DNA of 64,000 nucleotides, taken from IMG/VR virus record IMGVR_UViG_3300045988_093487; one strand, given 5' to 3'. This DNA is from a virus. The stretch's first letter is position 1. The number at the start of each line of letters is the position of its first letter. A program made the translations under genes and the position numbers. Shown one piece after another: positions 12,413-35,224 of this stretch. The notes below the pieces were generated by a model, which was not told the DNA's origin, ran no database searches, and saw nothing but the letters and a program-made list of their open reading frames with translations.

Positions 12413-12506
12413 GGGTATTAGTCTAACTGGATAAAACATCACTCTCCTAAAGTGAATTTCTCCGTTCGAGTCGGGGATGCCCCACCAAAATTTTTCTTAA
12501 AACCAC

Positions 12507-12535: not shown

Positions 12536-12573
12536 ATAGGTGTTCCAAGGGGAACAGAAAGAAGGTATATTAC

Positions 12574-13087: not shown

Positions 13088-13862
13088 TGATAGAATGAAA
13101 ACTTATTATGAGGGTGCATATCGTGTTTATCTGACGCGGCGTATGCCAGTCATTATCCGAATCGACTCTCGTGCTGGGCACACCTTCACAAAGAATCTGA
13201 AAAAGCCTTTTGATGCAGTTTTCACTGCAACTATGCAGGATACAATGAAGTATCTGTGTGAAAACATTCAGGGCTGTGTAATTGGTTATACGCAGTCTGA
13301 TGAAATTACTTTGTGCCTTGTTGATTATGACAAGCTGGAAACCGATGCTTGGTTTGGTTATAATCTAAACAAGCTGGTAAGCCTTAGTGCATCAATGGCT
13401 ACGTTGGCGTTTAATAAGTATTTTGAACGTAATGCCAATAGAACCCTCACCAAGATGGCATTGTCCTCTGGTGTGAATAAGTTTGAAATTGACGCTTACT
13501 CTGCTACATTGGCAAAGTGTAAAGAAAAGGGTTTGTGCTTCGATTCTCGCGCCTTTAATATCCCGAAGGAAGAGGCATGTAACTGTTTCTTATGGAGACA
13601 GCTTGACGCTTCTCGAAACAGTATTCAGGCGGTCGGTCAGGCAAACTTCTCGCATACTGTTCTGAATGGCAAGAGTACGTCTGAAATTCAGGATATGTTG
13701 ATGACCGAAAAAGGCATCAACTGGAACGACCTTGCGACTGAATTAAAGCGTGGCTCTTGCTGTGTACGAGATGGTAATGGCTGGTCTATTGACCGCGAGA
13801 TTCCTAAGTTTACCGGCGAAGGCCGTGACTATATTGATAAGCTGGTTTTTGTTGGAGAATAA
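13077..13862 (+). CDS. Thg1-like tRNA-His guanylyltransferase / 3'-5' polymerase
   Basis: IRIDSRAGHTFTK...KPFD...GYTQSDEITL matches the Thg1 catalytic core (RxDGRxFHxF, KPxD, YGQSDE); start codon uncertain (13020, 13077 or 13095). Confidence 0.65.
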   Translation: MTLDDRMKTYYEGAYRVYLTRRMPVIIRIDSRAGHTFTKNLKKPFDAVFTATMQDTMKYLCENIQGCVIGYTQSDEITLCLVDYDKLETDAWFGYNLNKLVSLSASMATLAFNKYFERNANRTLTKMALSSGVNKFEIDAYSATLAKCKEKGLCFDSRAFNIPKEEACNCFLWRQLDASRNSIQAVGQANFSHTVLNGKSTSEIQDMLMTEKGINWNDLATELKRGSCCVRDGNGWSIDREIPKFTGEGRDYIDKLVFVGE

Positions 13863-13863
13863 A

Positions 13864-14064
13864 ATGCCTAAATATAGTTTTGATTTTAGGTACGCATACG
13901 GAAGTTGGACATTATGTAATTTGCGTTATGAGCATTATGACATTGATGCCCCTTCTGAAAAGGAAGCATTTAAAATCGCAGAAAAACAGTTCAATGAAAC
14001 GCATAAATCTGCAATATGCGACCTCTATCGTGATAGTGATGGATGGCATAAACTTCTTTGGTGA
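13864..14064 (+). CDS. hypothetical protein
   Basis: 66 aa ORF starting ATGCCTAAATAT. Confidence 0.35.
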   Translation: MPKYSFDFRYAYGSWTLCNLRYEHYDIDAPSEKEAFKIAEKQFNETHKSAICDLYRDSDGWHKLLW

Positions 14065-14339
14065 GTATGAACATTAACATTCCGTTTTCTTGCGGCGATG
14101 TTGTGTACGCTGTAAGACCTAAAAATATGTATAACAAGGAAGCCTATATTTATAAAGGCATTGTTATTTATATTAAAGTCGAGGTTGACCGTGACAATAA
14201 AGCTAAAATTATGGCGCACGTCCGTGACCTCGATGAGACTTTAAGCGTACCTAACATCATCTATCAGAGCAGTGACAGTATCTACGCCACTCTGGATGAA
14301 GCTAGGTCAGCTAATCCAGATGTTCTGATAAAAATTTAA
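14058..14339 (+). CDS. hypothetical protein
   Basis: 93 aa ORF. Confidence 0.4.
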   Translation: MVSMNINIPFSCGDVVYAVRPKNMYNKEAYIYKGIVIYIKVEVDRDNKAKIMAHVRDLDETLSVPNIIYQSSDSIYATLDEARSANPDVLIKI

Positions 14340-14357
14340 AAAATTTCCCAAAACCCC

Positions 14358-14386
14358 TTGACAAATGATAAAAAATCTGGTATAAT
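14358..14386 (+). promoter_or_regulatory. conserved phage promoter driving the tRNA operon
   Basis: aaaaccccTTGACA, 17 bp spacer, TATAAT; leader hairpin GAGGAACgaaaGTTCCTC. Confidence 0.65.
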
Positions 14387-14421
14387 AAGGGTGTCAAGAG
14401 GAACGAAAGTTCCTCAAATAT

Positions 14422-14494
14422 ACGTCGGTAGTTTAACGGTAAAACAATGGCCTCCAAAGCCAGAAGATGATGGGTTCAAATCCCTCCCGGCGTG
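14422..14494 (+). tRNA. tRNA-Trp(CCA)
   Basis: acceptor acgtcgg/ccggcgt; anticodon loop ctCCAaa; GGGTTCAAATCCC T-arm (T-stem weakly paired); no encoded CCA. Confidence 0.55.
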
Positions 14495-14501
14495 TTTATA
14501 T

Positions 14502-14576
14502 GCGCTTATCGTTCAATGGATAGGACAAAACTCTTCTAAAGTTTTTATGTGGGTTCAATTCCTACTAGGCGTACCA
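14502..14576 (+). tRNA. tRNA-Arg(TCT)
   Basis: acceptor gcgctta/taggcgt; D-stem gttc/ggac; anticodon stem aaact/agttt with loop ctTCTaa; T-arm gtggg-ttcaatt-cctac; 3' CCA encoded. Confidence 0.7.
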
Positions 14577-14578
14577 CA

Positions 14579-14662
14579 GACGCATACAGCAATCCATAAA
14601 TTTTAATGGTTTAAAAAGAATGCTTAAAACAATCTTTCACGGTTCGATTCCGTTCTGCGTCT
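14579..14662 (+). tRNA. atypical tRNA-like gene (possible Leu-TAA, non-canonical D region)
   Basis: acceptor agacgca/tgcgtct (7/7) and cggTTCGATTccg T-arm, but about 14 extra nt around the D-arm; candidate anticodon arm gaatg-cttaaaa-caatc. Confidence 0.3.
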
Positions 14663-14739
14663 AATTTTTAGTTATTCTTCATCTTTATCTGAACTCGATA
14701 GACACGAACAGCAACACTTTCTTTGTTCGCGCCACTAAT

Positions 14740-14812
14740 TGCGAATATAGTTTAGATGGTTAGAACGCCACACCAAAATGTGGAGACGTGGGTTCGAGTC
14801 CCACTTATAGTT
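14740..14812 (+). tRNA. tRNA-like element / probable tRNA pseudogene
   Basis: canonical D-arm (tagtttagatggttagaac) and T-arm (gtgggTTCGAGTcccac) but a 6-nt anticodon loop (ccaaaa) and a poorly paired acceptor. Confidence 0.3.
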
Positions 14813-14823
14813 GTGTCTAATAT

Positions 14824-14896
14824 GCCCGGTTAGTCAAGTTGGCTAAGACGAGTGACTCTCAATCACTAGGCGGCAGTTCAATCCTGCCACCGGGTA
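14824..14896 (+). tRNA. tRNA-Glu(CTC)
   Basis: acceptor gcccggt/accgggt; anticodon stem agtga/tcact with loop ctCTCaa; T-arm ggcag-ttcaatc-ctgcc. Confidence 0.6.
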
Positions 14897-14901
14897 CTTT
14901 A

Positions 14902-14929
14902 TGGTCGAGTAGCTCAGTTGGTTAGAGCA
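14902..14929 (+). pseudogene. 5' fragment of a tRNA gene (acceptor + D-arm only)
   Basis: ggtcgagtagctcagttggttagagcag matches the 5' third of the tRNA-Lys and tRNA-Ile genes in this cluster, then diverges; lies next to the endonuclease gene. Confidence 0.45.
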
Positions 14930-14944
14930 GTAAATAAATGAGGT

Positions 14945-15703
14945 ATGAATATGGTAAACTCAAAGATGAAGGGTAATATTGCAGAATCGCGTGTTCTTTA
15001 TGAATTTGTTTAGAGGGGAATACCAGTTTCAATACCTTATGGCGATAATGAACGCTATGATATGATAGCGGAATTTAATGGGAAACTGAACAAGATACAG
15101 ATAAAGTTTTGTAATCAACAGATAGTTGATGGTTCGATAAGTTGCCCATGTTCTAATATAGTGAGTCCATTAACAAAAAGTAAGCACAGGGAATTATATG
15201 TTAATGACGTTGATTATATGGCATTTTACATATATGTATGGGATGTTGCTGTTATAATTCCAACAAGTTACATAGGGAATAGGATTCAGATAAAGATTAG
15301 AAAAGAACGCACAAAGAATAATCAAACTACAGCATCTACTTTTGTTGATGATTTTACATTTGATAAGATTGTTGGTACAGATATTCGTAATGTGATAGAA
15401 GAGCAACAAAATACCTACGAGAAGGCATATAATAGATGTATTGATTGTGGATGTATCATATCTGATAGAGCCGTAAGATGTTTAAAATGCAGAAACTTGA
15501 AGCAATACGAAGAAACAGCGAATCCGAATATGATAGATAGGGATACGCTCAAATCTATGATTAGAAATACACCGTTTAAGCATATTGCATCTATATGTGG
15601 AGTCTCGGATAACTGTATTAGAAATTGGTGTAAAAGGTATAATCTTCCATACCGCACATCTGATATTAAGAAATATACAGATGACGAGTGGAATGATATA
15701 TGA
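14945..15703 (+). CDS. Hjc/PD-(D/E)xK-type homing endonuclease with C-terminal Zn-finger/HTH, containing an in-frame TAG
   Basis: MNMVNSKMKGNIAESRVLYEFV-TAG-RGIPVSIPYGDNERYDMIAEFNGKLNKIQIKF matches Hjc-like nuclease motifs (GxxxE...D...K) across the TAG; CIDCGC...CLKCR zinc finger; the ORF track only shows the part from 15062. Confidence 0.5.
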
Positions 15704-15843
15704 TTTTGTTAGCTAATTACAAAAACAATATCCTACTGACATAATAATACCCATTTTTCGGTTTGGATAACAGCGCATAGGTATAAAAGTCTGTGATTAT
15801 TGGATAGGCTAACAATGACTGCTGGAAAGACAGCGTTTTATAT

Positions 15844-15920
15844 GCGGCAGTAGTTCAACTGGATAGAACAATCGGCTACGAACCGATAGGTTGCGAGTTC
15901 AAGTCTTGTCTGCCGTACCA
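15844..15920 (+). tRNA. tRNA-Arg(ACG)
   Basis: acceptor gcggcag/ctgccgt; anticodon stem atcgg/ccgat with loop ctACGaa; T-arm gcgag-ttcaagt-cttgt; CCA encoded. Confidence 0.7.
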
Positions 15921-16042
15921 GATAAATGAATCTTAAATTACGCTGGACAAAGGATAGCCTTTTATGGGAGACTGTTACGACAGTAACCCTGATTATCGGT
16001 GATGATGCTAACTCATGAGAGTGCGTAAGCCGACATTTATAT

Positions 16043-16118
16043 GTGCGTGTACTCGAATTGGCATAGAGAACGGTCTAAGAAGCCGTGTTTTGTGGGTTCA
16101 AGTCCCACCATGCACACC
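16043..16118 (+). tRNA. tRNA with anticodon AAG (Leu-like, short variable arm)
   Basis: acceptor gtgcgtg/catgcac; anticodon stem acggt/gccgt with loop ctAAGaa; T-arm gtggg-ttcaagt-cccac; A73; CCA encoded. Confidence 0.55.
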
Positions 16119-16122
16119 AGAA

Positions 16123-16243
16123 TACAGTATGGTTTCAATGGTAAAACATCACCCAAATAAGAATGTGTCTATGCAGACATAAGCCGCAACTGTTTTTCTT
16201 AAAAGCCAAGGTGAAGATGTCGGTTCGACCCCGACTGCTGTAT
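16123..16243 (+). tRNA. tRNA-like gene with about 50-nt insertion in the anticodon region
   Basis: perfect acceptor tacagta/tgctgta; D-arm gttt-caatggta-aaac; T-arm gtcgg-ttcgacc-ccgac; the region between D and T arms is about 55 nt too long and contains the hairpin tgtct-atgc-agaca. Confidence 0.35.
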
Positions 16244-16250
16244 TTATTAT

Positions 16251-16326
16251 GCGAGATTAACTCAACTGGAAGAGTGCCACTCTTACAAAGTGGAAGGTAC
16301 AAGTTCGAGTCTTGTATTTCGCACCA
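16251..16326 (+). tRNA. tRNA-Val(TAC)
   Basis: acceptor gcgagat/atttcgc; D-stem actc/gagt; anticodon stem ccact/agtgg with loop ctTACaa; T-arm acaag-ttcgagt-cttgt; CCA encoded. Confidence 0.7.
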
Positions 16327-16413
16327 TACGACAGTTTATAAGCAAAACAAGTTCTGTCGGTGATAAGACAAAAGACTTAATTGGCGGTTGAGTGACCTTA
16401 AACTCACCATTAT

Positions 16414-16529
16414 GGCTGTGTAGCTCAACTGGTAGAGCGCGTAAAACCTATCTATTTTAGATAGTAACAGCTACACATTTTTCCATTATAAGGACGAGGT
16501 TTATGGTTCGAGTCCATACGCAGCCACCA
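16414..16529 (+). tRNA. tRNA-like gene with about 40-nt insertion
   Basis: acceptor ggctgtg/cgcagcc; canonical D-arm tagctcaactggtagagc; T-arm tatgg-ttcgagt-ccata; CCA encoded; extra hairpin tatcta-tttt-tagata between the D and T arms. Confidence 0.35.
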
Positions 16530-16585
16530 GAAAATCTAAAAGAAGGGAAATGAATCCGATGCAGTAGATTGATAATAACAATCCA

Positions 16586-16822
16586 ATGGTTTTCTTTCAA
16601 ATGTTGGGTGAAGTTGCTGGTGACAACATCATGAGCAAGATTTCCCGACTAAAGATTGGTGAAGAAAACGGAATTGTTACTTTATATCTAAGAGATGAAC
16701 GCGAACCGTTCAACGATAGTGAACTTAGACAGCTAAAATACATCTTAGAAAGATGGTATGATATAATTTCTTTTAGGCGTGAAGATAGGCTTACTATGTT
16801 AGATATGAAGGTAAGAAAATGA
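16586..16822 (+). CDS. hypothetical protein inside the tRNA cluster
   Basis: 78 aa ORF; start uncertain. Confidence 0.3.
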   Translation: MVFFQMLGEVAGDNIMSKISRLKIGEENGIVTLYLRDEREPFNDSELRQLKYILERWYDIISFRREDRLTMLDMKVRK

Positions 16823-16920
16823 CCCTCCTTTATTTTTATATATAAAAAGACACATCCAGCAAACTTTTATTAAATTTTGAGTAGCCTTATGGTTCAATTT
16901 TTAATGTGTCTTTTAGATTT

Positions 16921-17008
16921 GCCAGTGTAGTTCAGTTGGTAGAACGCGGGTTTTGTAATCCCGATGCCGAAAGGGTTCTCGCAGGTTCAAGTCCTGTCAC
17001 TGGCTCCA
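16921..17008 (+). tRNA. tRNA with anticodon TGT (Thr-like) and a 17-nt variable region
   Basis: acceptor gccagtg/cactggc; D-arm gttc-agttggta-gaac; anticodon stem cggg(t)/(t)cccg with loop ttTGTaa; T-arm gcagg-ttcaagt-cctgt; CCA encoded. Confidence 0.5.
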
Positions 17009-17009
17009 T

Positions 17010-17085
17010 GCCACTTTAATTCAGTAGATAGAATGATGCGTTCGTACCGCATACGTCGTAGGTTTAATTCCTACAGGTGGCTCCA
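17010..17085 (+). tRNA. tRNA-Thr(CGT)
   Basis: acceptor gccactt/aggtggc; D-stem attc/gaat; anticodon stem atgcg/cgcat with loop ttCGTac; T-arm gtagg-tttaatt-cctac; CCA encoded. Confidence 0.7.
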
Positions 17086-17222
17086 ATCGCACCTATACCG
17101 TGGTAGAATAGGTATAGGCAAGTATTTTAACTACCGTGTCCATAGAGTTAATGGACTTGGGAGGTACTGACAAGACAGAAGAGCAAGTACCATGCACGTG
17201 GGCGGGTATTCGTGCTTTCATT

Positions 17223-17300
17223 TGCGTTCGTAGCTCAGTTGGTTAGAGCAATCGCCTTTTAAGCGATGGGTCGGGAGTTCGAGTCTCTTCGGGCGCACCA
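17223..17300 (+). tRNA. tRNA-Lys(TTT)
   Basis: acceptor gcgttcg/cgggcgc; D-arm tagctcagttggttagagc; anticodon stem atcgc/gcgat with loop ctTTTaa; GTTCGAGTC T-loop; CCA encoded. Confidence 0.7.
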
Positions 17301-17453
17301 CGCGGTAAGTAGTTTTCGAGTTGCGACTATTGTAGCTGGTATTCGTAAAAAATATAGTAAATGCGTGATATGACAGTATGCCGTGTTTGTGTTAAGGAAC
17401 AAGCACATTGCGGATAAACCGATGACTGCTGGAAAGACAGCAATTTATGTTTC

Positions 17454-17530
17454 CATAGCTCAGTTGGTTAGAGCGCAATCCTGATAAGATTGAGGTCGAA
17501 TGTTCAATTCATTCTGGAAACACCACTTAT
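17454..17530 (+). tRNA. tRNA-Ile(GAT)
   Basis: acceptor gtttcca/tggaaac; anticodon stem caatc/gattg with loop ctGATaa; T-arm gaatg-ttcaatt-cattc; CCA encoded. Confidence 0.7.
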
Positions 17531-17648
17531 TTTTGAAGTATTATAAAGATACTTTGAAATCTGATAGAAAATATCGTGTATTCACTAGGTATGAAACCGC
17601 TGGATGCAACGATACTCGCGTTATGCCTTTAGTAATCAAGGCATAATA

Positions 17649-17739
17649 TGTGGTAGTACCCAAGAGGTTGAAGGGGCTTGCTTGGAAAGCAAGTAGGCGG
17701 CGTATACCGTGCAGGGGTTCAAATCCCTTCTACCACGCC
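17649..17739 (+). tRNA. tRNA-Ser(GGA), type II
   Basis: perfect acceptor gtggtag/ctaccac; 3-bp D-stem; anticodon stem cttgc/gcaag with loop ttGGAaa; 19-nt variable arm; T-arm agggg-ttcaaat-ccctt; G73 and CCA encoded. Confidence 0.7.
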
Positions 17740-17866
17740 ACGACCGTAAAGATGAACAAAATAGAGCATACGGTGTTACAAAACCGTCTCGGAGTGATTG
17801 TACCACAGGGAGATTTAACGGAGTATATGCTCGATGTGTGGTTCGCAAAACCTAAATTGCAAATGT

Positions 17867-17941
17867 GCGTCATGCGCCAGACGGCTAGGCGAGAGACTGC
17901 AAATCTCTTTTAGATTGGTTCGACTCCAATATGACGCTCCA
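17867..17941 (+). tRNA. tRNA-Cys(GCA)
   Basis: acceptor gcgtcat/atgacgc; anticodon stem agaga/tctct with loop ctGCAaa; T-arm attgg-ttcgact-ccaat; CCA encoded. Confidence 0.7.
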
Positions 17942-19483: not shown

Positions 19484-19582
19484 TTACCCCTTATACATAA
19501 TAGGTGTTTAGATGAGATATTTAGGTGGTAAGAGTAGAATCGCAAAAGATATTTCAGATTATATCAATTCAGTGATAGGAAA

Positions 19583-19596
19583 TCGTGATTTTATCC
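19583..19596. repeat. left inverted repeat of the methyltransferase-1 invertible segment
   Basis: tcgtgattttatcc; its partner at 19716-19731 is the reverse complement apart from a 2-bp (ta) insertion. Confidence 0.65.
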
Positions 19597-19715
19597 GGTA
19601 ACTGCCTTCCGGCCTGAACATCTCGCCACATGGCGATTAAATACGGGTGCGCGTCATTAAGAATTTTGTGATTTGCATTGACACGTGACTCGATAGAACA
19701 GCTACCGCAAAACAA
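19597..19715. other. invertible segment (about 119 bp) inside the methyltransferase-1 coding sequence
   Basis: bounded by inverted repeats; encodes the methyltransferase motif I region on the opposite strand. Confidence 0.6.
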
Positions 19716-19731
19716 GGATATAAAATCACGA
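19716..19731. repeat. right inverted repeat of the methyltransferase-1 invertible segment
   Basis: ggatataaaatcacga, reverse complement tcgtgattttatatcc. Confidence 0.65.
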
Positions 19732-20197
19732 AGTCAACATACGATTACGTGAAAGCACACAAAGACGAAGACCCCGGATTAACCGGATATGTTGGTTTTG
19801 CGTGTAGTTATTCTGGCAAGTGGTTCGGTGGTCTTGCGAGAAATAAGCGCGGTGAAGATTTCTGTGCTGGTGCAAATCACAGCATTTATCGTGACCTAAA
19901 TGGTTTGAAAAACGCGGAGTTCTTGTGTGGCGATTATCGAGATGTATCAATCCCGGACGATTCGGTTGTATATTTAGACCCGCCATACAAAGGAACTACT
20001 GGATATTCTACTGGTGATTTTGACCATGAAGCGTTTTGGGAATATGTAAGAGAACTTTCAAAAAGATGCACAGTTCTTGTAAGCGAAGAGACTGCTCCTG
20101 ATGATTTTGCCTGTGTCTGGTCTAAACAGATTGCAAGACAGGTAGATGTGCGGCAAGGTCGAGTCTATAAAACTGAAAAATTATTTTCCAAAACCAC

Positions 20198-20226
20198 TTG
20201 ACAAATTTCCAGAAATTTGGTATAAT
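20198..20226 (+). promoter_or_regulatory. conserved phage promoter
   Basis: ccaaaaccacTTGACA, 17 bp spacer, TATAAT atAG. Confidence 0.65.
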
Positions 20227-20270
20227 ATAGTTGTTCGATTTATTCTATATACATACAAGAGGTAATTTAC

Positions 20271-21278
20271 ATGGCATTTAATTTTAGTGTACAAGAGGCT
20301 GTACGTGAGAAGATTGCTGTCAAGATTGCGCTGATGGGGCCTAGTGGATGCGGCAAGAGTTATTCTGCACTGCGTTTGGCAACTGGTATGATTGACGAAA
20401 TGCGTAAGCGGGATGTTCTTGAGGGAACGAACGGCAAGATTCTCTTCGCAAACACGGAAGGCCCTCGTGGTCGGTACTACGCAAAGGAGTTTAAGTTTGA
20501 CATTGTTGACTTGAATCCTCCTTATAACCCCGAACTGTTTATTGACCTTATCAATTTTGCAGTTCAGAACAAGTATTCCGTCCTTGTCATTGATAGTTCT
20601 TCGGCGGAATGGGAAGGTCGCGGCGGTTGTCTTGACTTGCAACAGCAGTTTGGTGGAAACTATCAGGCGTGGGCAAAGGTTACTCCTCGCCACGACAAGT
20701 TCATCGACACGATGGCATATTCTCCTATCCATATCATCAGCACGATGCGCGGGAAAGACCAATATGAGCTGGATAAGGATGACCGTGGCAAGGTGACTGT
20801 CAAGAAGTTGGGCGTTGGTGCAAAACAGCGTGATGGTTTTGAGTATTACTTCACTACTACATTCCTGATTGACCGTGATAGCCACATGGCGAAGTGCGAG
20901 AAGGATAATACCCATATCTTCGAGAACGAAGGAACTACTATCCTTGACGAAAGCCACGGCTCCAAGATTATTGACTGGGCAAACGATGGAGCGGATGACA
21001 ACTCTTACGCTGGCAATTATAATCCGGTAAAGGCAGAAGTTCCTGTTGGTAATCCTGCGACAGTCGGCAAAGCATCTGATTCGGAGATTGCGTCAGACAT
21101 TGAATCTATCGCAAGTCTGATTGAAGCACTCAAAACTAAGGGTGTTGACCGTATGGACATTGCAAAGGCTATTTCTAAGCATCACATCGTAAATGGCAAG
21201 CCTGTTGCAAACTACAACACTATCACTGATAGTAAGGTATCAAAGGCTGTTATTGCAGAATTGGAGAGTTTGGCATAA
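20271..21278 (+). CDS. Sak4-like / AAA_24-type RecA-fold ATPase
   Basis: Walker A LMGPSGCGKS; Walker B-like VLVIDSS; sits beside SSB and a nuclease; acidic C-terminal tail. Confidence 0.55.
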   Translation: MAFNFSVQEAVREKIAVKIALMGPSGCGKSYSALRLATGMIDEMRKRDVLEGTNGKILFANTEGPRGRYYAKEFKFDIVDLNPPYNPELFIDLINFAVQNKYSVLVIDSSSAEWEGRGGCLDLQQQFGGNYQAWAKVTPRHDKFIDTMAYSPIHIISTMRGKDQYELDKDDRGKVTVKKLGVGAKQRDGFEYYFTTTFLIDRDSHMAKCEKDNTHIFENEGTTILDESHGSKIIDWANDGADDNSYAGNYNPVKAEVPVGNPATVGKASDSEIASDIESIASLIEALKTKGVDRMDIAKAISKHHIVNGKPVANYNTITDSKVSKAVIAELESLA

Positions 21279-21484
21279 TGAAAAGCGCTTACCTTTCTGG
21301 TAGACAGATTGCAAAGATTATCTTGATGGAAGCTGTGAATGGTAATATCAAGTATAGTCGTTACATTTACAGACTTAGCTCTTCTGCTGACGCAACACAG
21401 AAAGCAATGGAGGAACTTGCAACACACAAGTTTACCAATGCGGGTCAGTTGAAGAAATATCTTGAAACGTATGTTATTTTCTAA
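21278..21484 (+). CDS. hypothetical protein
   Basis: 68 aa ORF, start overlaps the upstream stop (ATAATG). Confidence 0.4.
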   Translation: MKSAYLSGRQIAKIILMEAVNGNIKYSRYIYRLSSSADATQKAMEELATHKFTNAGQLKKYLETYVIF

Positions 21485-21503
21485 TCTAAAGGAGATTTAA
21501 TAC

Positions 21504-21920
21504 ATGGTAAATAATGTTGTTATTATGGGTCGTATGGTTCGTGACCCGGAACTGCGTCAGCTTGATAACGGTACTAGCGTAACCACTTTTAGTGTCGCAG
21601 TTGACCGTAATTATGTTGACAAGACCACCAACGAACGTCAGGCAGATTTTCTGAATGTCGTTGCTTGGCGGCAGACAGCGGATTTCGTCTGCAAGTATTT
21701 CCATCAGGGTGATATGATTGCCATTGAGGGTTCTTTGCAGTCTCGGAAGTATACCGACAAGGACGGAAATAATCGCATTGCGATTGAGATTGTTGCAAGC
21801 AATGTATCGTTCTGTGGCGGTAAGAATAGCGGTAATACAAATACCGCAACTACCAATGACGCTCCTGCGACTATGGTAGCAAATGCTCCCTCTGAGGACA
21901 ATGACGAACTGCCGTTCTGA
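21504..21920 (+). CDS. ssb: single-stranded DNA-binding protein
   Basis: OB-fold N-terminus MVNNVVIMGRMVRDPELRQLDNGTSVTTFSVAV, W/F residues, acidic tail ending DELPF. Confidence 0.75.
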   Translation: MVNNVVIMGRMVRDPELRQLDNGTSVTTFSVAVDRNYVDKTTNERQADFLNVVAWRQTADFVCKYFHQGDMIAIEGSLQSRKYTDKDGNNRIAIEIVASNVSFCGGKNSGNTNTATTNDAPATMVANAPSEDNDELPF

Positions 21921-21937
21921 TAACTAAAATATGATTT

Positions 21938-21978
21938 ATGGGGCGAGCGGTTGCGCTCCGCCCCATTTTTATTATAAG
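21938..21978 (+). terminator. rho-independent terminator
   Basis: ggggcgagcggttgcgctccgcccc hairpin plus atttttatt. Confidence 0.65.
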
Positions 21979-22001
21979 GGTGAATTAACAAATGGATATG
22001 A

Positions 22002-22783
22002 ATAAGAATGCGTAGGTCAACATATACTCCTTTTCAAAGTTAAAAAGTTTCTTCAATTGTAAGTATTACTATTATCTCCATTATTTTGATGATATGAAAA
22101 TGATTCCAGAATCACATGGTACAAGCGAATTTGGGTCATATATGCACAAGATATTAGAGATGTATGGAAAAGGCGAACTTGATATATATGATATGCTTTC
22201 GTATTATGAGAAGCATTATGCAGAGAATGTAACATCTACTTTTACTTTGCAGATGAAAAAGAACTTCTCAAGGGATATGGGGTATAAATATTACAAAGAT
22301 GGCTATGATTTTCTAAGTAATTTTACAGGTTTTGATTTTAAGATTTTAGAAACTGAAAAACATTTTGAACTACCTTTCAAAGATAAATTTAGATTGCAAG
22401 GCCAAATAGACGTTATTGCAGAAAACGATGATGGTTTACTGATTATTGATTATAAATCTAAAGGAAATTGGAAGAGCAAAGCAGAGCGTGTCGAATATGA
22501 AAAACAGTTGTATTCATACGCTTGGGCAATGAAGCAAATATATGGTGAATATCCGAAAAAGATGGCTTTCTTTATGTTTAGATTAAACAAATGGACATGG
22601 GTTGATTTCGACGAGAATAGGCTAAATGAAGTCTTAAATTGGATAGAATCAACTGTTGATGAGATAGAGAGCGAATTTGAGTTCAAGCCTATTACCCAAG
22701 AGAATAATGGGGTATTCGATTTCTATTGTAACAATTTCTGTGATTTTCGCCATCAATGTCCTTATGGACAATTAACTAATTAA
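22002..22783 (+). CDS. Cas4/RecB-like PD-(D/E)xK exonuclease with 4-Cys cluster; in-frame TAG at codon 8
   Basis: C-terminal CNNFCDFRHQCPY plus N-terminal SFFNCKYYYYLHY give the Cas4-type cysteine arrangement; QIDVI...DYKS nuclease core; the N-terminal Cys is only reachable from ATG 22002 through the TAG at 22023-22025, with no alternative start codon in between; the ORF track shows only the part from 22094. Confidence 0.6.
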
Positions 22784-24798: not shown

Positions 24799-26456
24799 AT
24801 GGCAAACTATACAGTCTACCACTTACATACTATGCTGAGTAATGCGGTCACGAACATTGACTCAGTTACTACATATAAGCAGTACATAGAAAAGGCAAAG
24901 GCGTGTGGAATGACTGCTATGGCCTTTTCAGAGCATGGTAATATCTTTGAATGGGTTCATAAAAAAGATGCCATTGAGGCCGCTGGCATGAAATATATTC
25001 ATGCCATGGAAGCATACCTTACCGAGCGTATTCCAGACGAGGGTGAGGAAAAGATTCGTGATAATTACCACTGCGTTTTGATTGCTAGAAACTGGGAGGG
25101 TGTTAAGGAACTTAACGTCTTGCAGGGTAAGGCATTTAATCGTGTTGACGGTCATTATTACTATGCACCTCGAATTACGTTCGCTGAACTGTTCTCCACG
25201 AGTAATAATATTATTATTACCACTGCCTGTGTTGCGTCTGCATTGTGTAGAGGAACCGAAAGCGCAAAGGAATCTTATCTTAGATTCTTAACAAGGCATA
25301 AAGATAGATGTTTCTTGGAAGTCCAGCACCATAATACGCAGAAGCAGTTTGAGTATAATAGATACTTGGCGAATCTGTCCAAGGAAACTGGTCTTAGATT
25401 GATTGCTGGTACTGATACCCACTGTTTGAACGCGGAGCATGAACTTGGCCGTAGCGCACTACAGCGTGGCAAGGGCGTTTTCTTCGATGATGAAGTCGGT
25501 TGGGATTTAACATGGAAAACCTACGATGAACTTGTCGAGGCATACAGAACACAAGATGCTCTCAGTGAAGAGGAATATATGTCTGCAATCAATAACACAA
25601 ATGTTATGGCAGATATGATTGAAACCTTTGAGCTTGATAGAAGTTTCAAGTACGCAAAGATTTACGATGATGGCGAGAAAGTCCTTCGTGAAAAGTTGTT
25701 TGCACCAGAAACTATCGAACCGATTATCAAAGAGGGATTTTCAAGAGAAGAAGTAACTGCGCGTTTGGAGCAGGAAATTGACACTTTTAAGGCTTTGAAT
25801 GCGACTGACTTTATTCTTCTCGAAGACCATATTGTGCGTTGGGAACATTCGCATGATATGTGGCAAGGCCCTGCACGTGGAAGCGCCGCTAGTTCCTTGG
25901 CTTTGTACGCTTTGGGTGTGACAGAAGTAAACCCATTGAAATATGGATTTTATTTCTGGCGATTCATGGATAAATCTAAGTACAGCTTGGCTGACGTTGA
26001 TATGGATAACTCGGCAAAAGACCGTGATAAATTGAAGTTTTGGATGTTGAACGACCACCTAGACCTTCCGAATGTCAAGACTTGCGAAATTATTACGTTC
26101 AACACAATCGCATTAAAGGGTGCAATTCGTGATATCGGACGTGGATTGGATATGCCTTTGGATGAGGTTGATACGATTGCAAAGGCCGTTCATGAAGTAG
26201 CAGTCGATGAAGAAAAGATTGTTACTATTGATGATAGCTGGCGTAAGAAATATCCAGAGCTGTTCAAGTATGTTGATATTGTTATTGGCACTATCGTTAG
26301 TATCGGTTCTCATCCGTCTGGTGTTGTTGTTTCTGACCATGACATTGAATCAGAATTTGGTCTGTGTTATCTAAAAGATGACCCCTATCCTGTCTCCTGC
26401 ATCAATATGAAGGAACTTGATTCCCTTAATTTTACCAAACAGGATGCCCTTGGGTA
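24799..26456 (+). CDS. dnaE: DNA polymerase III alpha (DnaE-type), exon 1 (PHP domain and start of palm)
   Basis: PHP motifs YHLHTMLS and FSEHGN; ends ...NFTKQDALG at a 5' splice site cttgggT|. Confidence 0.75.
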
Positions 26457-26681
26457 AACAATCCTGCCCAAGTAAAAGCGAGTTATATGCTGGGAAGTGC
26501 TTAGAGCCTCAGTTACCAAAGTGTGACAATACTGAGGATTGCACAATCAGCAGGCACGATAAGTTCTGCCTCAACGACTATGGGAATATCCCAACTGTCA
26601 TAGAGTGATTTATGACAGTAACCTCGCTGAAATGATATAGTCTGGTCTGCATTTAATAGTGCAGAGTCAAGCAGAAATGAC

Positions 26682-26710
26682 TTGACATTTTGTTTGCTTT
26701 CTGATATAAT
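26682..26710 (+). promoter_or_regulatory. conserved phage promoter inside the intron, upstream of the endonuclease ORF
   Basis: gaCTTGACA, 17 bp spacer, TATAAT atAtG. Confidence 0.55.
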
Positions 26711-26782
26711 ATATGTAAAGGTGGTGATTGTATGGCGAAAGCAAGATATACGAAAGTGTAGTTCTATAATGAAATACTCCGG

Positions 26783-27799
26783 TTGTATAAAGAGTATGGC
26801 GAGATAAACCAAAATATCTACGCAAAACACACAAGTCTTGATGTTAGCTTTAGACAGTATTGTAATAAGTACGGTGGATTAAAGCAGATATGTAAAGACC
26901 TTGGAATAGAGTATAGCTATTATAATGAAGTTTCCAAAGAGCAAGCGCTTGAACGTGGGCGAATGTTGTTAGAGCAATATGGATTCTTGCGAAAGGAACT
27001 TTGTCAAAAGAACGGAATATCATCTAGTACAGTTGCGAAACTGTTTGGAAGTTATCAAAACTTTTATAAGGAAGTTGGATATAACACAGACTTTCGTAGA
27101 GATGTTCCAGTTGAAGATGTAAGAAAAGATATACTCGAATTTATAACCGAAACTGGTTCTAAGTCAATTACAGACTACAAGAAAGCGCATCGGTATTCAC
27201 AATCTATAATTGATAGATGTGGTGGGTGGCATACAATTCTTGTTGATATTGGAGTAGAACCAAAGAAATGGCGTAATGGTAAAGACAATATAATCAAACA
27301 GACACGTGAATTGATAAACAAATATGGTTATCTGTCAAGTAAACTAATAGAAGATAATTGCGATTTTACTTTGCAAGCGTTGGAGTATTACTTAGGAAAC
27401 GCTGATAGTATTTGCAAATATTTCGGTAATGAGCATTTATTTGACTACGGCAGAAGTAGTCAAGAACTCAGAATAGCAGAGTTACTCAAAGATATTCTAG
27501 GTGTCGGGAATTTTTCACGTGAAGTTACATGGGATTGGTTGTTGTCAGACAGCGGCAATCATCTGTATGTGGACTTTTATATTGATTCTTTAAAAGTTGC
27601 GATAGAATATGACGGTGAGCAACACTACAAATACGTTGAAAGGTTTCATAGAAATTATGATGGGTTTCTTGAATATCAGCGTAGAGATAATATAAAGAGT
27701 TCGTTGCTTGCAGAACATAACATCAAACTTATTAGAATATCATATACGCAAGAAATATCAGAAAAATATCTAAGAGATATATTAAGCAAACAAAATTAA
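26783..27799 (+). CDS. intron-encoded homing endonuclease (PD-(D/E)xK / Vsr-like C-terminal domain with N-terminal HTH repeats)
   Basis: C-terminal YVDFYIDSLKVAIEYDGEQHY nuclease-like motif; 3-4 N-terminal helix-turn-helix repeats; lies entirely within the dnaE intron. Confidence 0.55.
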   Translation: MYKEYGEINQNIYAKHTSLDVSFRQYCNKYGGLKQICKDLGIEYSYYNEVSKEQALERGRMLLEQYGFLRKELCQKNGISSSTVAKLFGSYQNFYKEVGYNTDFRRDVPVEDVRKDILEFITETGSKSITDYKKAHRYSQSIIDRCGGWHTILVDIGVEPKKWRNGKDNIIKQTRELINKYGYLSSKLIEDNCDFTLQALEYYLGNADSICKYFGNEHLFDYGRSSQELRIAELLKDILGVGNFSREVTWDWLLSDSGNHLYVDFYIDSLKVAIEYDGEQHYKYVERFHRNYDGFLEYQRRDNIKSSLLAEHNIKLIRISYTQEISEKYLRDILSKQN

Positions 27800-27809
27800 C
27801 AAAATTACG

Positions 27810-29344
27810 TGGATAATGTTGGTATCATCAATGAAACCTGTAAGTTGGCTGGTATCGAGAGATTATCGCCAAAAACGATTGACTTTGAGGATGATGCAGT
27901 TTGGAATAGTATCAAGGAAGATACATCTTTGATTTTTCAGATGAACTCCAACTATGGTCAACGCACAGTTGATAAGATGTTATCACCAGAGGTTTACAGT
28001 AAGATTAAGAAGCAGATTCCTAATATGACACGTTTGGATTTGCTGACATTCATCAATGCTCTTATTCGTCCTTGTGGTAAGGGAGTTTATGATGATGCGA
28101 CGAACGGTATCGTATCTAAAACAGGAATTAAAGAGATTGATAATTTGCTTGGCTCTTCTATGGGCTATGCAATTATGCAAGAGCCTCAGATGGCTTTTGT
28201 TCAGGAGTTCTGTGGTTACGATTTCTTGAGAGCTGATAAGCTCCGTAAGATTATCGGTAAGAAACTTGGTACACGCGACCAGCTTCCTATTATTAAGGAA
28301 GGCTGGGAAAAGAACGCAAAGGTCAAATATCATTTAACTGATGAGCAATCTGACAAGATTATCAATCCGTTCTTACAGTGTATCCTTGATGCTACACGGT
28401 ATTCGTTCTCACTGGTTCATAGTTTGAGCTATTCTTGTATTAGTTATGAATGTGCATATCTGCGTTATCATTATCCATTACAGTATTTGACCTCTTGCCT
28501 TAACGCATGGAACGGTGATGACAACAAGACAGCAGAAGCTATTGAGTACGCAAATAGTCGCAAGGTAAAAATTCTTGCGCCTAAGTTCAGACATGCAAAG
28601 GCAGAATACTTCTATGACCTTGCTACGAACAGTATTTATAAGGGTACGAGCAGTATCAAGGGATTGAATGCAGGATATTCTGATTTCTTGTATTCTTTGA
28701 AGGATAACACTTATAAGACATTCACTGACCTGTTGTATGATATTCAGGCATCGGGTATGCCTCGTGACCAAGTTGAAACTTTGATTAAACTTGATTACTT
28801 TGAAGAGTTCGGTACTTGTAGAGAGTTGGTAACAATCTTTAAGCAGTTCCAGTTCTTTAAGAAGGGCGAAGCGAAAACGATTGCTAAGAGTAAGATTCCA
28901 GACGAGATTACAATGAACATTATTAAGCGCAATGCTAACGAAACCGAGAAGCAATTCAATAAGTTAAATTGTCATAATATCTTGAACGAGATTGAACAGT
29001 ATATTATGACTATGAATCTTGGTGATGTTGACATCAAAACCAAGATTGCTAATCAGCTTGAATATATGGGTTACATTGGTATTAAGACTGACAAATCCGA
29101 AGATAGACCTAAGATTGTTATTCTTGAGATGAAGGTCATGAAACAGCGTGAATCTGTTGAGCCTTGGGGAGTTATCATTGATGCGCAGTCCATTGGTTCT
29201 GGTAAGCGTAGTTCTTATACAGTTCCTTACAAACTGTATAAGAAATGCAAGTTCAATAAGAATGATGTAATTAAGATTCGTGATTGGTATAAGAACAAGC
29301 GTGGTTACTTCTATATTACTGATTATGAATTTGTGGTTATGTAA
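27810..29344 (+). CDS. dnaE: DNA polymerase III alpha (DnaE-type), exon 2
   Basis: continues DnaE palm/fingers homology (NVGIINETCKLAG...); the first codon is completed by the last nucleotide of exon 1. Confidence 0.7.
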
Positions 29345-34436: not shown

Positions 34437-34952
34437 ATGAAGTATATGGGAAGCAAGGCAAGAATTGCAAAAGACATTTGCCCGATTATTCAGTCGTTTA
34501 TTGACAAGAGTGGCGCATACGTGTATATCGAAGGATTCGTTGGCGGCGCAAACATAATTGATAAAATCAACTGCGATATACGTCATGGAATTGATAAGAA
34601 TAAATATCTTATTGCACTTTTGAAATACGTCGCCAATGGTGGCGAATTACTTGGTAGAGTATCTAAAGATACGTATACCGAAGTAAAACAGAATAAAGAT
34701 AATTACCCGAACTGGCTTGTTGGTAATGTTGGATTTCTTGCATCTTACAACGGTAAGTTCTTTGATGGCGGTTATGCAAACACCGTAATTGAGCATACTA
34801 AATACGGTGATAAAGTCCGTGACTATTATCAAGAAGGAAAGAGAAATCTTGAACAGCAAGCACCGAATCTAAAGGATATTATCTTTACGTCAGGTGATTT
34901 TCTCGAATTATGGAAGAGCTTCGTCGGTCAAAAGGAAGTAGTTTTTTATTAA
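34437..34952 (+). CDS. Dam-like DNA adenine methyltransferase, N-terminal 171 codons only (OFF; C-terminal catalytic part lies inverted downstream)
   Basis: MKYMGSKARIAKDI, FVGGANI (motif I), SYNGKFFDGG; stops at KEVVFY just before the expected DPPY motif. Confidence 0.7.
   Translation: MKYMGSKARIAKDICPIIQSFIDKSGAYVYIEGFVGGANIIDKINCDIRHGIDKNKYLIALLKYVANGGELLGRVSKDTYTEVKQNKDNYPNWLVGNVGFLASYNGKFFDGGYANTVIEHTKYGDKVRDYYQEGKRNLEQQAPNLKDIIFTSGDFLELWKSFVGQKEVVFY
34937..34950. repeat. left inverted repeat of the methyltransferase-2 invertible segment
   Basis: agtagttttttatt; perfect reverse complement at 35191-35204. Confidence 0.7.
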
Positions 34953-35190
34953 ATATATCCCAAAGCCTTACCAATTACAAATAGCTTCTCGGTAGGATAT
35001 TCACGACCAGTTGCGCTGATTGTTCTTGCAACTTTCTTTTCCCAAATACAAGTAAAATCATCCGGCATCCATTGTTCACTAACGATGACGATGTTGTTCT
35101 TACTAAGTTCCCTGCAAATATCATAGAATTTATCGTAATCAAATCCCTTTGATACATCATACTTTGTAGTATTTAAGTAAGGAATATCAA
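34951..35190 (-). other. invertible segment carrying the methyltransferase-2 C-terminal catalytic region (minus strand in this assembly)
   Basis: minus-strand translation FDIPYLNTTKYDVSKGFDYDKFYDICRELSKNNIVIVSEQWMPDDFTCIWEKKVARTISATGREYPTEKLFVIGKALGYI aligns with the methyltransferase-1 C-terminus (LDPPYKGTTGYSTGDFDHEAFWEYVRELSKRCTVLVSEETAPDDFACVWSKQIARQVDVRQGRVYKTEKLFS); inversion fuses in frame ...KEVVFYFDIPY... Confidence 0.7.
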
Positions 35191-35204
35191 AATAAAAAAC
35201 TACT
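35191..35204. repeat. right inverted repeat of the methyltransferase-2 invertible segment
   Basis: aataaaaaactact. Confidence 0.7.
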
Positions 35205-35224
35205 ATTATTAAAGGAGTAAAAAT

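Follow-up and report, generated by a model that had tools for sequence, protein, structure and literature searches.

The locus described here raises the question of whether a viral methyltransferase gene that is cut in two, with its catalytic end on the opposite strand, is the product of random damage or one position of a switch. The gene, referred to as M1, occupies positions 34437-35204 of the window, that is, the whole stretch of 64,000 nucleotides analysed from IMG/VR virus record IMGVR_UViG_3300045988_093487, and its sequence predicts an orphan Dam-family (D12) N6-adenine DNA methyltransferase. A preliminary description had proposed programmed ON/OFF inversion rather than random damage, and the comparative data favour this proposal: both forms are common and interleaved, the inverted segment is intact in the OFF state, contigs end at the repeats, the repeat arms co-vary and the same genome has a second switch. 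With a probability of about 0.8, the phage has two orphan Dam-family genes with segments bounded by inverted repeats, which are flipped often, reversibly and independently of each other; a dedicated recombinase and a bet-hedging function are parts of this reading which we infer.

The source of the window is a tailed phage of the human gut with a genome of ~113-118 kb, some of its relatives reaching ~150 kb. Its host is probably a Firmicute, likely one of the Lachnospiraceae or an Enterocloster-like bacterium, and the phage is common and widespread in public human-gut metagenomes. No relative of a tail-fibre protein was found in IMG/VR. Both M1 and the second gene, M2, are in the OFF state within the window (Table 1).

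Table 1. Features of the two switches and of the neighbouring recombination module; positions are those of the window
Feature	Coordinates	Strand	Remarks
M2 5′ stub, OFF state	19512..19601	+	MRYLGGKSRIAKDISDYINSVIGNRDFIR, then stop; stop two codons past left arm
M2 left repeat arm TCGTGATTTTAT	19583..19594	+	within coding sequence
M2 invertible block, 125 bp	19595..19719	-	encodes residues ~29-70
M2 right repeat arm ATAAAATCACGA	19720..19731	+	within coding sequence
M2 3′ part with DPPY	19720..20201	+	
Phage recombination module	20271..22783	+	directly downstream of M2
Sak4-like AAA_24	20271-21278	+	
SSB	21504-21920	+	
PD-(D/E)XK nuclease	22094-22783	+	
M1 5′ part, OFF state	34437..34952	+	171 aa ending KEVVFY, then stop; PF02086 match at residues 3-89
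M1 left repeat arm AGTAGTTTTTTATT	34937..34950	+	within coding sequence, codons for VVFY
M1 invertible block, 240 bp	34951..35190	-	encodes C-terminal 80 aa, FDIPY...KALGYI
M1 right repeat arm AATAAAAAACTACT	35191..35204	+	

The 5′ part of M1 holds motif I (FVGGA) and the target-recognition region. Its ORF was reproduced as first described, and the break does precede the catalytic motif; this motif, however, is DIPY and not the DPPY that had been expected there. The stop codon of the OFF state, TAA, is created at the junction of repeat and block, with the last base of the left arm completing it. Catalytic motif IV and the remainder of the catalytic domain lie on the minus strand of the block, and the missing C-terminus was recovered from that strand as reported, since the minus strand of 34949-35206 reads IVVFYFDIPYLNTTKY...KALGYI-stop, uninterrupted by stops. 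The arms, likewise found again, form a perfect 14-bp inverted repeat 240 nt apart, and no further copy of the 14-mer is present in the window, even at two mismatches. In the ON state the right arm covers the final two bases of the stop codon and 12 nt beyond, and the ribosome-binding site of the following gene (35225) comes shortly after it. Inversion of the block in silico gives a single ORF of 251 aa with both junctions in frame, in agreement with the earlier claim of a complete protein.

The reconstructed protein matches PF02086 (D12 class MTase) with 28 bits against a cut-off of 22, over residues 3-200, while its match to the NCBIfam Dam model is weak (30.9 bits against a cut-off of 114.85). 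It has 1,874 homologues at E<=1e-10, and among the 120 listed the PF02086 domain is present in all except the truncated P0005. The motif IV of this predicted enzyme differs from the canonical DPPY, which occurs in 108/118 of the full-length (>=200 aa) homologues among those 120; DIPY occurs in 9/118, mostly the closest relatives, and is conserved in Enterocloster phages too. A megablast search of the M1 locus against 50,697 phage records gave no match, and a distant search of phage records returned Enterocloster phages only, in which the homologue is colinear. The Enterocloster homologue is split at a T7 run; this might represent the same idea realised by slippage, or else an error of sequencing. 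No match to M1 was obtained with phmmer against PDB sequences.

Public human-gut assemblies contain M1 in both orientations, with 124 distinct intact (ON) and 45 distinct truncated (OFF) sequences. The 251-aa and 171-aa forms were both found in independent assemblies (Logan, MEGAHIT, SPAdes, JGI and NCBI TPA), and a lineage of 88% identity similarly has members of 250 and 170 aa. ON and OFF sequences are interleaved in the M1 tree, which includes at least six ON/OFF pairs with 100% identical N-terminal halves. A closer comparison is provided by the OFF locus L087, whose 1,068-nt haplotype (500 nt to the left, 268 nt of arms plus block and 300 nt to the right) is that of seven ON loci except for orientation. 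Its 268-bp segment, when reversed, is 100% identical to those of L095-L098 and L002, and in the closest pair, L087 and L096, the surrounding genomes are 99.2-99.8% identical. All 12 OFF loci (12/12) keep an intact reading frame of 84-85 codons in the block, and the view of truncated M1 as a decaying pseudogene was rejected on these grounds. The inversion is clade-specific, as all of the more distant IMG/VR homologues (76/76) are colinear. N-terminal halves of M1 can fall to 84-88% identity while the block is ~96% identical, a mosaicism observed at this locus. A metagenome scan with the 17-mer GGAAGTAGTTTTTTATT was unspecific, the phage accounting for 1/120 loci, in the ON state.

The preliminary description had also pointed to a paralogous methyltransferase at 19749-20201. 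A second methyltransferase is indeed encoded there, although the interval is merely the 3′ part of a gene at 19512-20201 which is itself split by inversion. This gene, M2, is again predicted from its sequence to be an orphan Dam-family (D12) N6-adenine DNA methyltransferase. Its arms form a perfect 12-bp inverted repeat exactly at the breakpoints, and the minus strand of its block includes the AdoMet-binding motif I (FCGSCS). When flipped in silico, M2 yields a protein of 229 aa which scores 70.7 bits against PF02086 and contains both FCGSCS and DPPY, the latter being present in 117/117 full-length homologues among those listed. In the OFF state, gene callers show the 3′ part as an ORF of 150-184 aa. 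The M2 switch had been missed in the preliminary description, as had the candidate tyrosine recombinase elsewhere in the genome.

Both orientations of M2 are again found in public data, where ON clusters have 154 and 98 members and predominantly OFF clusters have 51, 51 and 24. For the 98-member ON cluster 14 members were listed; two of them are truncated, one of which, a form of 142 aa, was confirmed as OFF. Each of the four block haplotypes was seen in both orientations (4/4). With most haplotypes the OFF translation ends two codons past the arm; in the variant P0316 the frame stays open across the flipped block and gives a protein of 229 aa. A third design is found in an M2 lineage of 74% identity (M2b), which possesses a 15-19-bp repeat with the left arm in the 5′ UTR, so that the flip takes with it the ribosome-binding site, the start codon and approximately the first 70 codons; it was seen ON (L222) and OFF (L223, L224). 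Genomes in the states OFF/OFF, ON/ON and M2-OFF/M1-ON were all found, which shows the states of M1 and M2 to be independent.

At least nine contigs end or start exactly at positions defined by the repeats. For four of these the end point is the final base of the M1 left arm (L090, L109, L226, L227) and for one that of the right arm (L091), three end at arm + 16, equal to k-1-14 for k=31 (L004, L006, L111), and two begin with the first base of the M2 right arm (L110, L111). L111 is unbroken for the ~16 kb between the M1 and M2 switches and is broken at both. Such breaks at the arms are the expected signature of both orientations within one sample, and the contig-end positions are indirect evidence that the two may co-exist there. 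A practical consequence is that assemblies break at the switches and gene callers label such genes as truncated, 'hypothetical' or partial methylases.

By itself, the M1 repeat is only mildly unusual, since 100 first-order Markov simulations lead one to expect 0.17 perfect inverted repeats of >=14 bp with a spacer of 30-600 nt in a 64-kb window. The case is decided by the position of the repeat, exactly where the inverted segment of the gene begins and ends, and by the comparative data. Only two inversions, those of M1 and M2, separate the window from 49 related loci. The other perfect repeats of >=12 bp in the window, among them two of 12 bp at 16532/16909 (365-nt spacer) and 30766/31357 (579-nt spacer), are not accompanied by an inversion in the related loci which cover them. 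The M1 repeat is perfect in 32/32 loci with both arms, even beside diverged sequence. Its arms read AGTAG.../...CTACT in most lineages and AATAG.../...CTATT in two others, and both arms always change together; this covariation of the outermost positions fits a crossover region of 6-8 bp no better than it fits pairing over the entire repeat. The variant P0145, which reads KEAVFY, is an example of an arm mismatch. One representative of a 70%-identity lineage without the M1 repeat was examined and its gene is intact. Within a single phage clade the switch has evolved in no fewer than three designs, and its arms co-vary, which makes selection for invertibility itself likely.

The M1 and M2 repeats have different sequences, with only ...TTTTAT in common at their inner end, which was considered too weak for a shared motif. 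Across the three repeat types (M1, M2 and M2b), the inner ends share only G(A/T)TTTT..AT, and no conserved extended recombinase-binding site or flanking half-sites were found. The sequence ATATTCC, located 3-4 nt inside both M1 arms, was dropped as a possible recombinase site as it is not conserved in a lineage of 78% identity.

The statement that no invertase is visible in the window holds for the 33 larger ORFs scanned (150-782 aa, Pfam); nor was an invertase present among the Pfam-annotated called genes of homologous contigs. In particular, no serine recombinase (PF00239-type) was detected in either set, nor in 30 ORFs over positions 2231-51130 of a 113-kb relative. A tyrosine recombinase is, however, encoded by relatives outside the region of the window, so that a search beyond it, as envisaged in the preliminary description, did identify a candidate, though not of the serine type in the parts inspected (the 113-kb relative beyond its first ~2.2 kb, and all but ~27-35 kb of the relatives of 148-150 kb). 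This Xer-like protein of 359 aa, encoded at L117:1172-2251, matches PF00589 (47 bits) and PF13495, and plausible catalytic residues R, HxxR, W and Y could be read by eye in GSRKQE, HAARHRY, GWES and VSVYSD. Its gene adjoins neither switch and lies ~46 kb from M1, beside a RecU-like resolvase in the relatives. No match to it was found with phmmer among PDB sequences.

The candidate is 99.4-100% identical in five IMG/VR relatives, and one exact sequence of it is present on 117 contigs, the longest being 117,996 and 105,786, as for the M1-bearing contigs; co-occurrence with M1 is based on the five IMG/VR contigs and on these matching sizes. A scan of 185,579 species genomes found none with an integrated copy; its sole return was a contig of 4.7 kb from the bin of a Bacteroidales MAG, which gives neither a prophage nor a reliable host. 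The family is widespread in large Firmicute siphophages, such as the Tsamsa and SPbeta groups, which are not known to have such switches. The relative with a 65%-identical recombinase (L119/L120) is absent from the contigs which carry M1- or M2-like genes. The Xer-like protein is put forward only as a candidate for the invertase of the switches.

According to the proposed mechanism, recombination between two arms would flip the segment between them, one orientation giving an intact gene (ON) and the other placing an essential part on the wrong strand (OFF), this part being catalytic motif IV for M1 and the AdoMet-binding motif I for M2. The repeated occurrence of both orientations on otherwise identical sequence and the maintenance of the arms were observed. 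The flips would presumably be catalysed by a site-specific recombinase, for which the Xer-like enzyme of the phage would be the best candidate.

Four other explanations were considered. An assembly artefact or a one-off inactivating rearrangement leaving a pseudogene has nothing in its favour beyond the single window on its own. The 12-14-bp repeats are shorter than any k-mer used, these being 31 for Logan and 119-141 for MEGAHIT (from the names k119_, k127_ and k141_), and the two forms come from five sources and several assemblers; the undegraded OFF blocks and the ON/OFF pairs of identical sequence refute a pseudogene, and the explanation retains practically no weight. An old two-allele inversion polymorphism under selection, spread by homologous recombination during co-infection with no active switching, could draw on the mosaicism around M1, and two co-existing strains could also produce contig breaks. 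It predicts fixed differences between ON and OFF blocks, yet identical haplotypes occur both ways at M1 and at M2, and two distinct strains would be expected to break the ~16 kb of L111 elsewhere than at the switches. The co-varying arms and three independent designs also argue for selected invertibility, and we regard such a polymorphism as very improbable.

The remaining two explanations accept recurrent flipping and differ as to its agent. Flips might occur without a dedicated invertase, by pairing of the short repeats, with selection keeping both states; they could arise by template switching during replication or by annealing through the Sak4-like/SSB/PD-(D/E)XK proteins with RecU-like resolution, the part of this module in flipping being hypothetical. 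This is unlikely in our judgement, even though several features suit it: neither sequence nor position is constant across the three repeat types, the M2 left arm originated at separate sites in two of the lineages, the outermost arm positions co-vary as if whole repeats paired or heteroduplex repair homogenised them, and the genes required are at hand directly downstream of M2 and, for the resolvase, in the relatives. Homology of 12-14 bp, on the other hand, normally gives very low recombination rates, whereas both states are frequent here and the many assemblies which break at the repeat imply sizeable minorities within samples. In addition, TTTTAT at the inner boundary of all three repeat types hints at a common recognised core, and the two other 12-bp repeats named above are uninverted in relatives, a weak test given that inversion there would probably be lethal. 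Alternatively, the phage may contribute only the repeats and an invertase of the host may act on them, which would account for the lack of a recombinase gene beside either switch or within the window. Gut bacteria have many invertases, and among these are known global ones that act in trans. In Bacteroides thetaiotaomicron alone there are 56, their targets unassigned (bioRxiv 10.1101/2023.03.11.532203). The phage clade nevertheless has a tyrosine recombinase of its own, which is extremely conserved and shows no sign of serving in integration, and a host enzyme appears rather improbable.

A close parallel is offered by the intragenic and partially intergenic invertons of gut bacteria reported by Chanin et al. 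in 'Intragenic DNA inversions expand bacterial coding capacity' (bioRxiv 10.1101/2023.03.11.532203). These also have short inverted repeats inside or at the edge of coding sequence, take a 'premature stop' form (as M1 and M2) or a 'recoding' form (as the M2 variant P0316), and are mostly without an assigned invertase. By these terms M2 is fully intragenic, while M1, with its right arm over the stop codon, and M2b, with its left arm in the 5′ UTR, are partially intergenic. The bacterial cases are chromosomal whereas M1 and M2 reside in a virus, in which two paralogues of one genome are each switched and a sister lineage shows a third design. The main text of that study does not contain the terms 'methyltransferase' or 'methylase', and none of its three mentions of 'phage' concerns phage genomes.

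Inversion between inverted repeats also alters the methylation state of the genome in the Type I R-M 'epigenetic invertons' of Streptococcus pneumoniae, Bacteroides fragilis and Mycoplasma, where hsdS is shuffled, usually by a tyrosine recombinase, and target-recognition modules are swapped between hsdS genes so that the motif changes (PMC4948785, PMC7641763, PMC7672463). Here, in contrast, a single-polypeptide orphan Dam-family enzyme is made or broken without an alternative cassette, and the beneficiary would be the phage instead of the host cell. Phasevarions share with M1 and M2 the stochastic ON/OFF switching of a DNA methyltransferase, but they are bacterial Type III mod and Type I genes which switch by slippage of simple sequence repeats and not by inversion (PMC7383803). 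The classical invertible segments of phages, Mu G/Gin and P1 C/Cin, are similarly phage-borne and give two phage subpopulations; they act on tail-fibre genes and host range and use an adjacent serine invertase, sites of ~26 bp, an enhancer and Fis (van de Putte and Goosen, 1992). With M1 and M2 no serine recombinase was found, the sites are of 12-19 bp and the targets are methyltransferases.

A further likeness exists to fimS of E. coli, which has 9-bp inverted repeats and is flipped by the tyrosine recombinases FimB/FimE. As in the present case, very short perfect repeats surround a few hundred bp, and in fimS a tyrosine recombinase flips the segment at high frequency. The fimS segment, however, carries a promoter and has adjacent recombinase genes, whereas here coding sequence is inverted and the putative recombinase is encoded at a distance of tens of kb. 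In the literature searched, viral cases appear only as tentative 'potential viral invertons' without methyltransferases, and our literature search found no description of an inversion switch of a phage methyltransferase.

The usual view of phage-encoded orphan methyltransferases is that they protect constitutively against the restriction enzymes of the host. DNA which is methylated becomes, in its turn, a target for methylation-dependent nucleases. The purpose of the switches may be bet-hedging of the methylation state of the phage, in which methylation would protect the DNA from the restriction-modification systems of the host and its absence would protect it from methylation-dependent restriction, with two switches allowing up to four epigenetic states. 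The full proposal, that this is the first described virus to phase-vary its own epigenetic marks, by toggling two methyltransferases independently with an Xer-like invertase and hedging through up to four progeny types, is put forward tentatively and is given somewhat less than an even chance. If true, one phage lineage would constantly release progeny of up to four methylation types and so hedge between hosts with classical restriction-modification and hosts with methylation-dependent restriction. A heritable, reversible ON/OFF switch would keep both options open in one phage lineage, and two independent switches would multiply the states.

The preliminary description held that M1, a D12/Dam-family methyltransferase gene, is split in the window into a plus-strand ORF of 171 residues ending in KEVVFY and a C-terminus encoded directly downstream on the minus strand, with a perfect 14-bp inverted repeat bounding the reversed block. 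This observation is confirmed, and each element was reproduced. Reversal of 34951-35190 in silico joins both junctions in frame as one ORF of 251 aa (about 250 aa had been stated), which Pfam assigns to the D12-class N6-adenine methyltransferases (28 bits, threshold 22). The arms are perfectly complementary with a spacer of 240 nt, and the 14-mer has just two copies within the window, even with two mismatches tolerated. In the split (OFF) form, the stop codon arises directly at the junction of arm and block. The catalytic motif, expected to be DPPY, is DIPY, a variant found mainly in the closest relatives of M1 and in Enterocloster phage homologues. By chance, a window should contain 0.17 repeats of comparable size and spacing, and the repeat alone is therefore little proof of a switch.

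Coordinates of the methyltransferase switches and of further features of the window (L222 and L223 are related public contigs)
Feature	Coordinates	Strand	Remarks
M1 5′ part, OFF form	34437-34952	+	ORF of 171 aa, ending ...GQKEVVFY (stop)
M1 left arm	34937-34950		AGTAGTTTTTTATT; coding (VVFY)
M1 C-terminal part	34949-35206	-	open frame, reads IVVFYFDIPYLNTTKY...KALGYI (stop)
M1 right arm	35191-35204		AATAAAAAACTACT; overlaps stop codon in intact form
M2 arms	19583-19594 and 19720-19731		perfect 12-bp repeat TCGTGATTTTAT
M2 block	19595-19719	-	125 bp; residues ~29-70, including AdoMet-binding motif FCGSCS
Switch of 74%-identity M2 lineage	L222:9973-10223; L223:2711-2962
Perfect 13-bp inverted repeat	51223-51311		spacer 63 nt
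Perfect 13-bp inverted repeat	14681-15297		spacer 591 nt
DnaE polymerase, split	24799-29344		552-aa and 511-aa ORFs
338-aa ORF splitting DnaE	26783-27799		weak homing-endonuclease repeat match
tRNA cluster	12412-17941		13 genes, ORF-poor stretch
Tail-fibre-like ORF	59105-61456	-	783 aa
Tandem repeat within tail-fibre-like ORF	60915-61418		168-nt unit, three copies (100%, 100%, 97% identical)
Reverse transcriptase (RVT_1)	62842-63741	-	63.6 bits; beside DUF6273 tail-module genes
GIY-YIG nuclease + Rep3_N replication-initiator domains	52208-53242		single ORF
SPFH/Band-7 proteins	10833-12365 and 53973-54830		two proteins

A search of the reconstructed enzyme against 5.8 billion proteins returned both forms of M1, namely the intact (ON) 251-aa protein (P0001, 99% identity, a cluster of 124 distinct sequences) and the 171-aa protein (P0005, 98% identity, 45 distinct sequences), while an 88%-identity lineage has 250-aa plus 170/171-aa forms. 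Sources included Logan, ENA (MEGAHIT and SPAdes assemblies), JGI/IMG and NCBI among others, with record names denoting human-gut metagenomes. An assembly artefact was ruled out as the origin of the inversion, because the repeat is shorter than every k-mer used. A neighbour-joining tree built from the N-terminal 171 residues has ON and OFF forms interleaved in all its parts; no fewer than six ON/OFF pairs are identical across this half of the protein. The OFF locus L087 and seven ON loci have one common haplotype of 1,068 nt (500 nt to the left, both arms and block, and 300 nt to the right); its 268-bp segment is 100% identical, in reverse orientation, to that of five ON loci, and around the segment its genome is 99.2-99.8% identical to that of L096, the closest ON locus. 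All 12 OFF loci keep an uninterrupted block of 84-85 codons, so the OFF copies are not decaying. These comparisons provide evidence for M1 flips that would be both recent and recurrent. The reading of M1 as a programmed ON/OFF switch rather than random damage is supported by the presence of both forms in public assemblies and by the intact OFF blocks.

The M1 arms are perfect in 32/32 loci containing both, and are still perfect in a lineage whose sequence immediately outside the left arm is unalignable. In two lineages, that of P0003 (ON, 78% identity) and the P0157 sub-lineage (OFF), the left arm reads AATAGTTTTTTATT and the right arm AATAAAAAACTATT, one and the same substitution being present in both, coding in the left (V to I) and non-coding in the right. 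On this evidence, the M1 repeat is maintained. No repeat occurs at the M1 site of the 70%-identity P0004 lineage, the sole representative examined being intact, and the more distant IMG/VR homologues are all colinear (76/76). In contig L107 (ENA NODE_157, 112,680 bp; 19643-21514), M1 is a 623-aa protein with an intein (Intein_splicing and LAGLIDADG matches), which keeps both arms and is in the ON orientation. In Enterocloster phage CB473P3 (OP172757.1, L001:3295-3350), annotation divides the colinear M1 homologue into two overlapping ORFs, since its coding strand is frameshifted within a T7 run (GGCAAATTTTTTTGGTGG); with one T removed, ...GKFFGGYPRGF would be restored. Either a sequencing error or phase variation by slippage in this enzyme family could account for the frameshift, and three sister phages gave matching hits.

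M2 is a second gene of the same family, and starts at 19512 but as it stands meets a stop after 29 codons (MRYLGGKSRIAKDISDYINSVIGNRDFIR). The preliminary description took 19749-20201 to be a paralogous methyltransferase; the sequence is indeed that of a methyltransferase, but it is just the 3′ part of a gene (19512-20201) that is itself split by an inversion. With the block flipped, M2 encodes a 229-aa enzyme with DPPY (PF02086, 70.7 bits). In public data, two clusters are ON (154 and 98 members) and three predominantly OFF (51, 51 and 24 members), the representatives of the latter having as their N-terminus the block read in antisense. Among the loci examined, 4/4 block haplotypes were found in both orientations, and, apart from orientation, L108 (M2 ON) and the window (M2 OFF) do not differ in the block or in the 72 nt and 300 nt that adjoin it. 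The variant P0316 lacks a stop in the flipped block, and gene calling gives it as a 'recoded' protein of 229 aa.

A third design is present in a 74%-identity M2 lineage, whose right arm occupies the homologous gene position and whose left arm is in the 5′ UTR, ahead of the ribosome-binding site. Its repeat is AAAAATTGATTTTAT(TAGA), of 15-19 bp, and the segment that flips, about 220 bp long, comprises the start codon with its ribosome-binding site and roughly the first 70 codons. The ON state was seen in L222, the OFF state in L224 and in L223, a SPAdes contig of 101 kb. The arm has an internal dyad, ATAAAA-AATTGA-TTTTAT.

The states of M1 and M2 were scored in genomes with the window's exact DnaE fragment and in IMG/VR relatives. 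Both genes are OFF in the window and in ENA contig k119_15915 (probably the source of the window), and ON/ON and M2-OFF/M1-ON genomes were likewise found, the two states being independent of each other. Against 49 related loci, the M1 and M2 segments were the sole inversions; the two perfect 13-bp inverted repeats elsewhere in the window lie outside the regions covered by these loci.

Contig ends at the switches indirectly suggest mixed orientations within samples. In a k=31 de Bruijn graph, as derived here, both orientations force a branch at the arm end and 16 bases (k-1-14) past it, and a single orientation gives no branch there. Contigs L090, L109, L226 and L227 end on the last base of the M1 left arm, at least L004, L006 and L111 end 16 bases past it, and L091 terminates on the last base of the right arm. 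In two sibling samples of the P0157 sub-lineage, contigs stop on the arm's last base, and L110 (SPAdes) and L111 (Logan) begin exactly where the M2 right arm does. L111 is unbroken for ~16 kb between both switches and broken at each, indirectly and more simply explained by one strain heterogeneous at both than by two strains.

Pfam searches of the 33 larger window ORFs (150-782 aa), and precomputed Pfam annotation of homologous contigs, gave no serine or tyrosine recombinase in the window, in keeping with the preliminary description; directly 3′ of M2 are encoded a Sak4-like protein, an SSB and a PD-(D/E)XK nuclease. A search of the rest of the genome had also been proposed there, and of 30 ORFs scanned at 2231-51130 of a 112,960-bp IMG/VR relative, one encodes a tyrosine recombinase and none a serine recombinase. 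This protein (359 aa, PF00589 and PF13495) is encoded directly after a RecU-like resolvase, has the putative catalytic residues as read by eye, and is 99.4-100% identical across five relatives. One exact sequence occurs on 117 contigs, the longest of which match the longest M1-bearing contigs in size. Among 185,579 species genomes, none was found to hold an integrated copy, which argues weakly against an integrase role.

We tentatively put at roughly 45-50% the probability that this conserved recombinase is the invertase of M1 and M2; against the link, its family is common in large Firmicute siphophages, its gene is not adjacent to the switches, and the repeats have only ...TTTTAT in common. 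Inversion driven by repeat pairing, independent of a recombinase, seems unlikely: arms that co-vary at their outermost positions point to pairing along the entire repeat, but the apparently high frequency of both states favours an enzyme. That a host-encoded invertase flips the segments is more improbable still.

In relatives, DnaE is intact (1,063 aa, L087), carries an intein (1,482 aa, L003) or has a different insert, of 278 aa (L002). The RVT_1 and DUF6273 cassette, probably a diversity-generating retroelement, also occurs at L114:6445-9620 and is absent from L113 and L115. Relatives of 148-150 kb in IMG/VR extend at least 8 kb past window position 1 (L214:1-8228, L216:1-8228), or ~35 kb judged from contig sizes, and the added DNA has phage genes, among them those for an isochorismatase-family protein and an ATP-dependent ligase. 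Many contigs of 113-118 kb stop within ~12 nt of window position 1. Contig L209 encodes the anaerobic ribonucleotide reductase NrdD (167-2254) and an 817-aa protein matching the RdRP family PF05183 (4106-6559), which may be a single-subunit RNA polymerase like the YonO of SPbeta-type phages.

Classical invertible segments of phages are tail-fibre switches with serine invertases. In gut bacteria, intragenic invertons of premature-stop and recoding types have been described (Chanin et al., bioRxiv 10.1101/2023.03.11.532203), and the P0316 variant of M2 is likewise recoded. Inversion-driven epigenetic switching is known for bacterial Type I hsdS genes (PMC4948785, PMC7641763 and PMC7672463), and 'potential viral invertons' were proposed in 2026, only tentatively and without methyltransferases. 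No description of inversion-switched phage methyltransferases was found in the literature searched. The finding goes beyond the preliminary description, which concerned M1 only, in that this genome has two switches and a sister lineage a third design.

No restriction gene adjoins M1 or M2 and the enzymes are therefore regarded as orphan. Phage Dam-like enzymes usually protect against host restriction, and methylation exposes DNA to methylation-dependent restriction. With both enzymes reversibly switched, the methylation state would vary among the progeny; an alternative role of methylation by M1 and M2 may be the regulation of phage functions.
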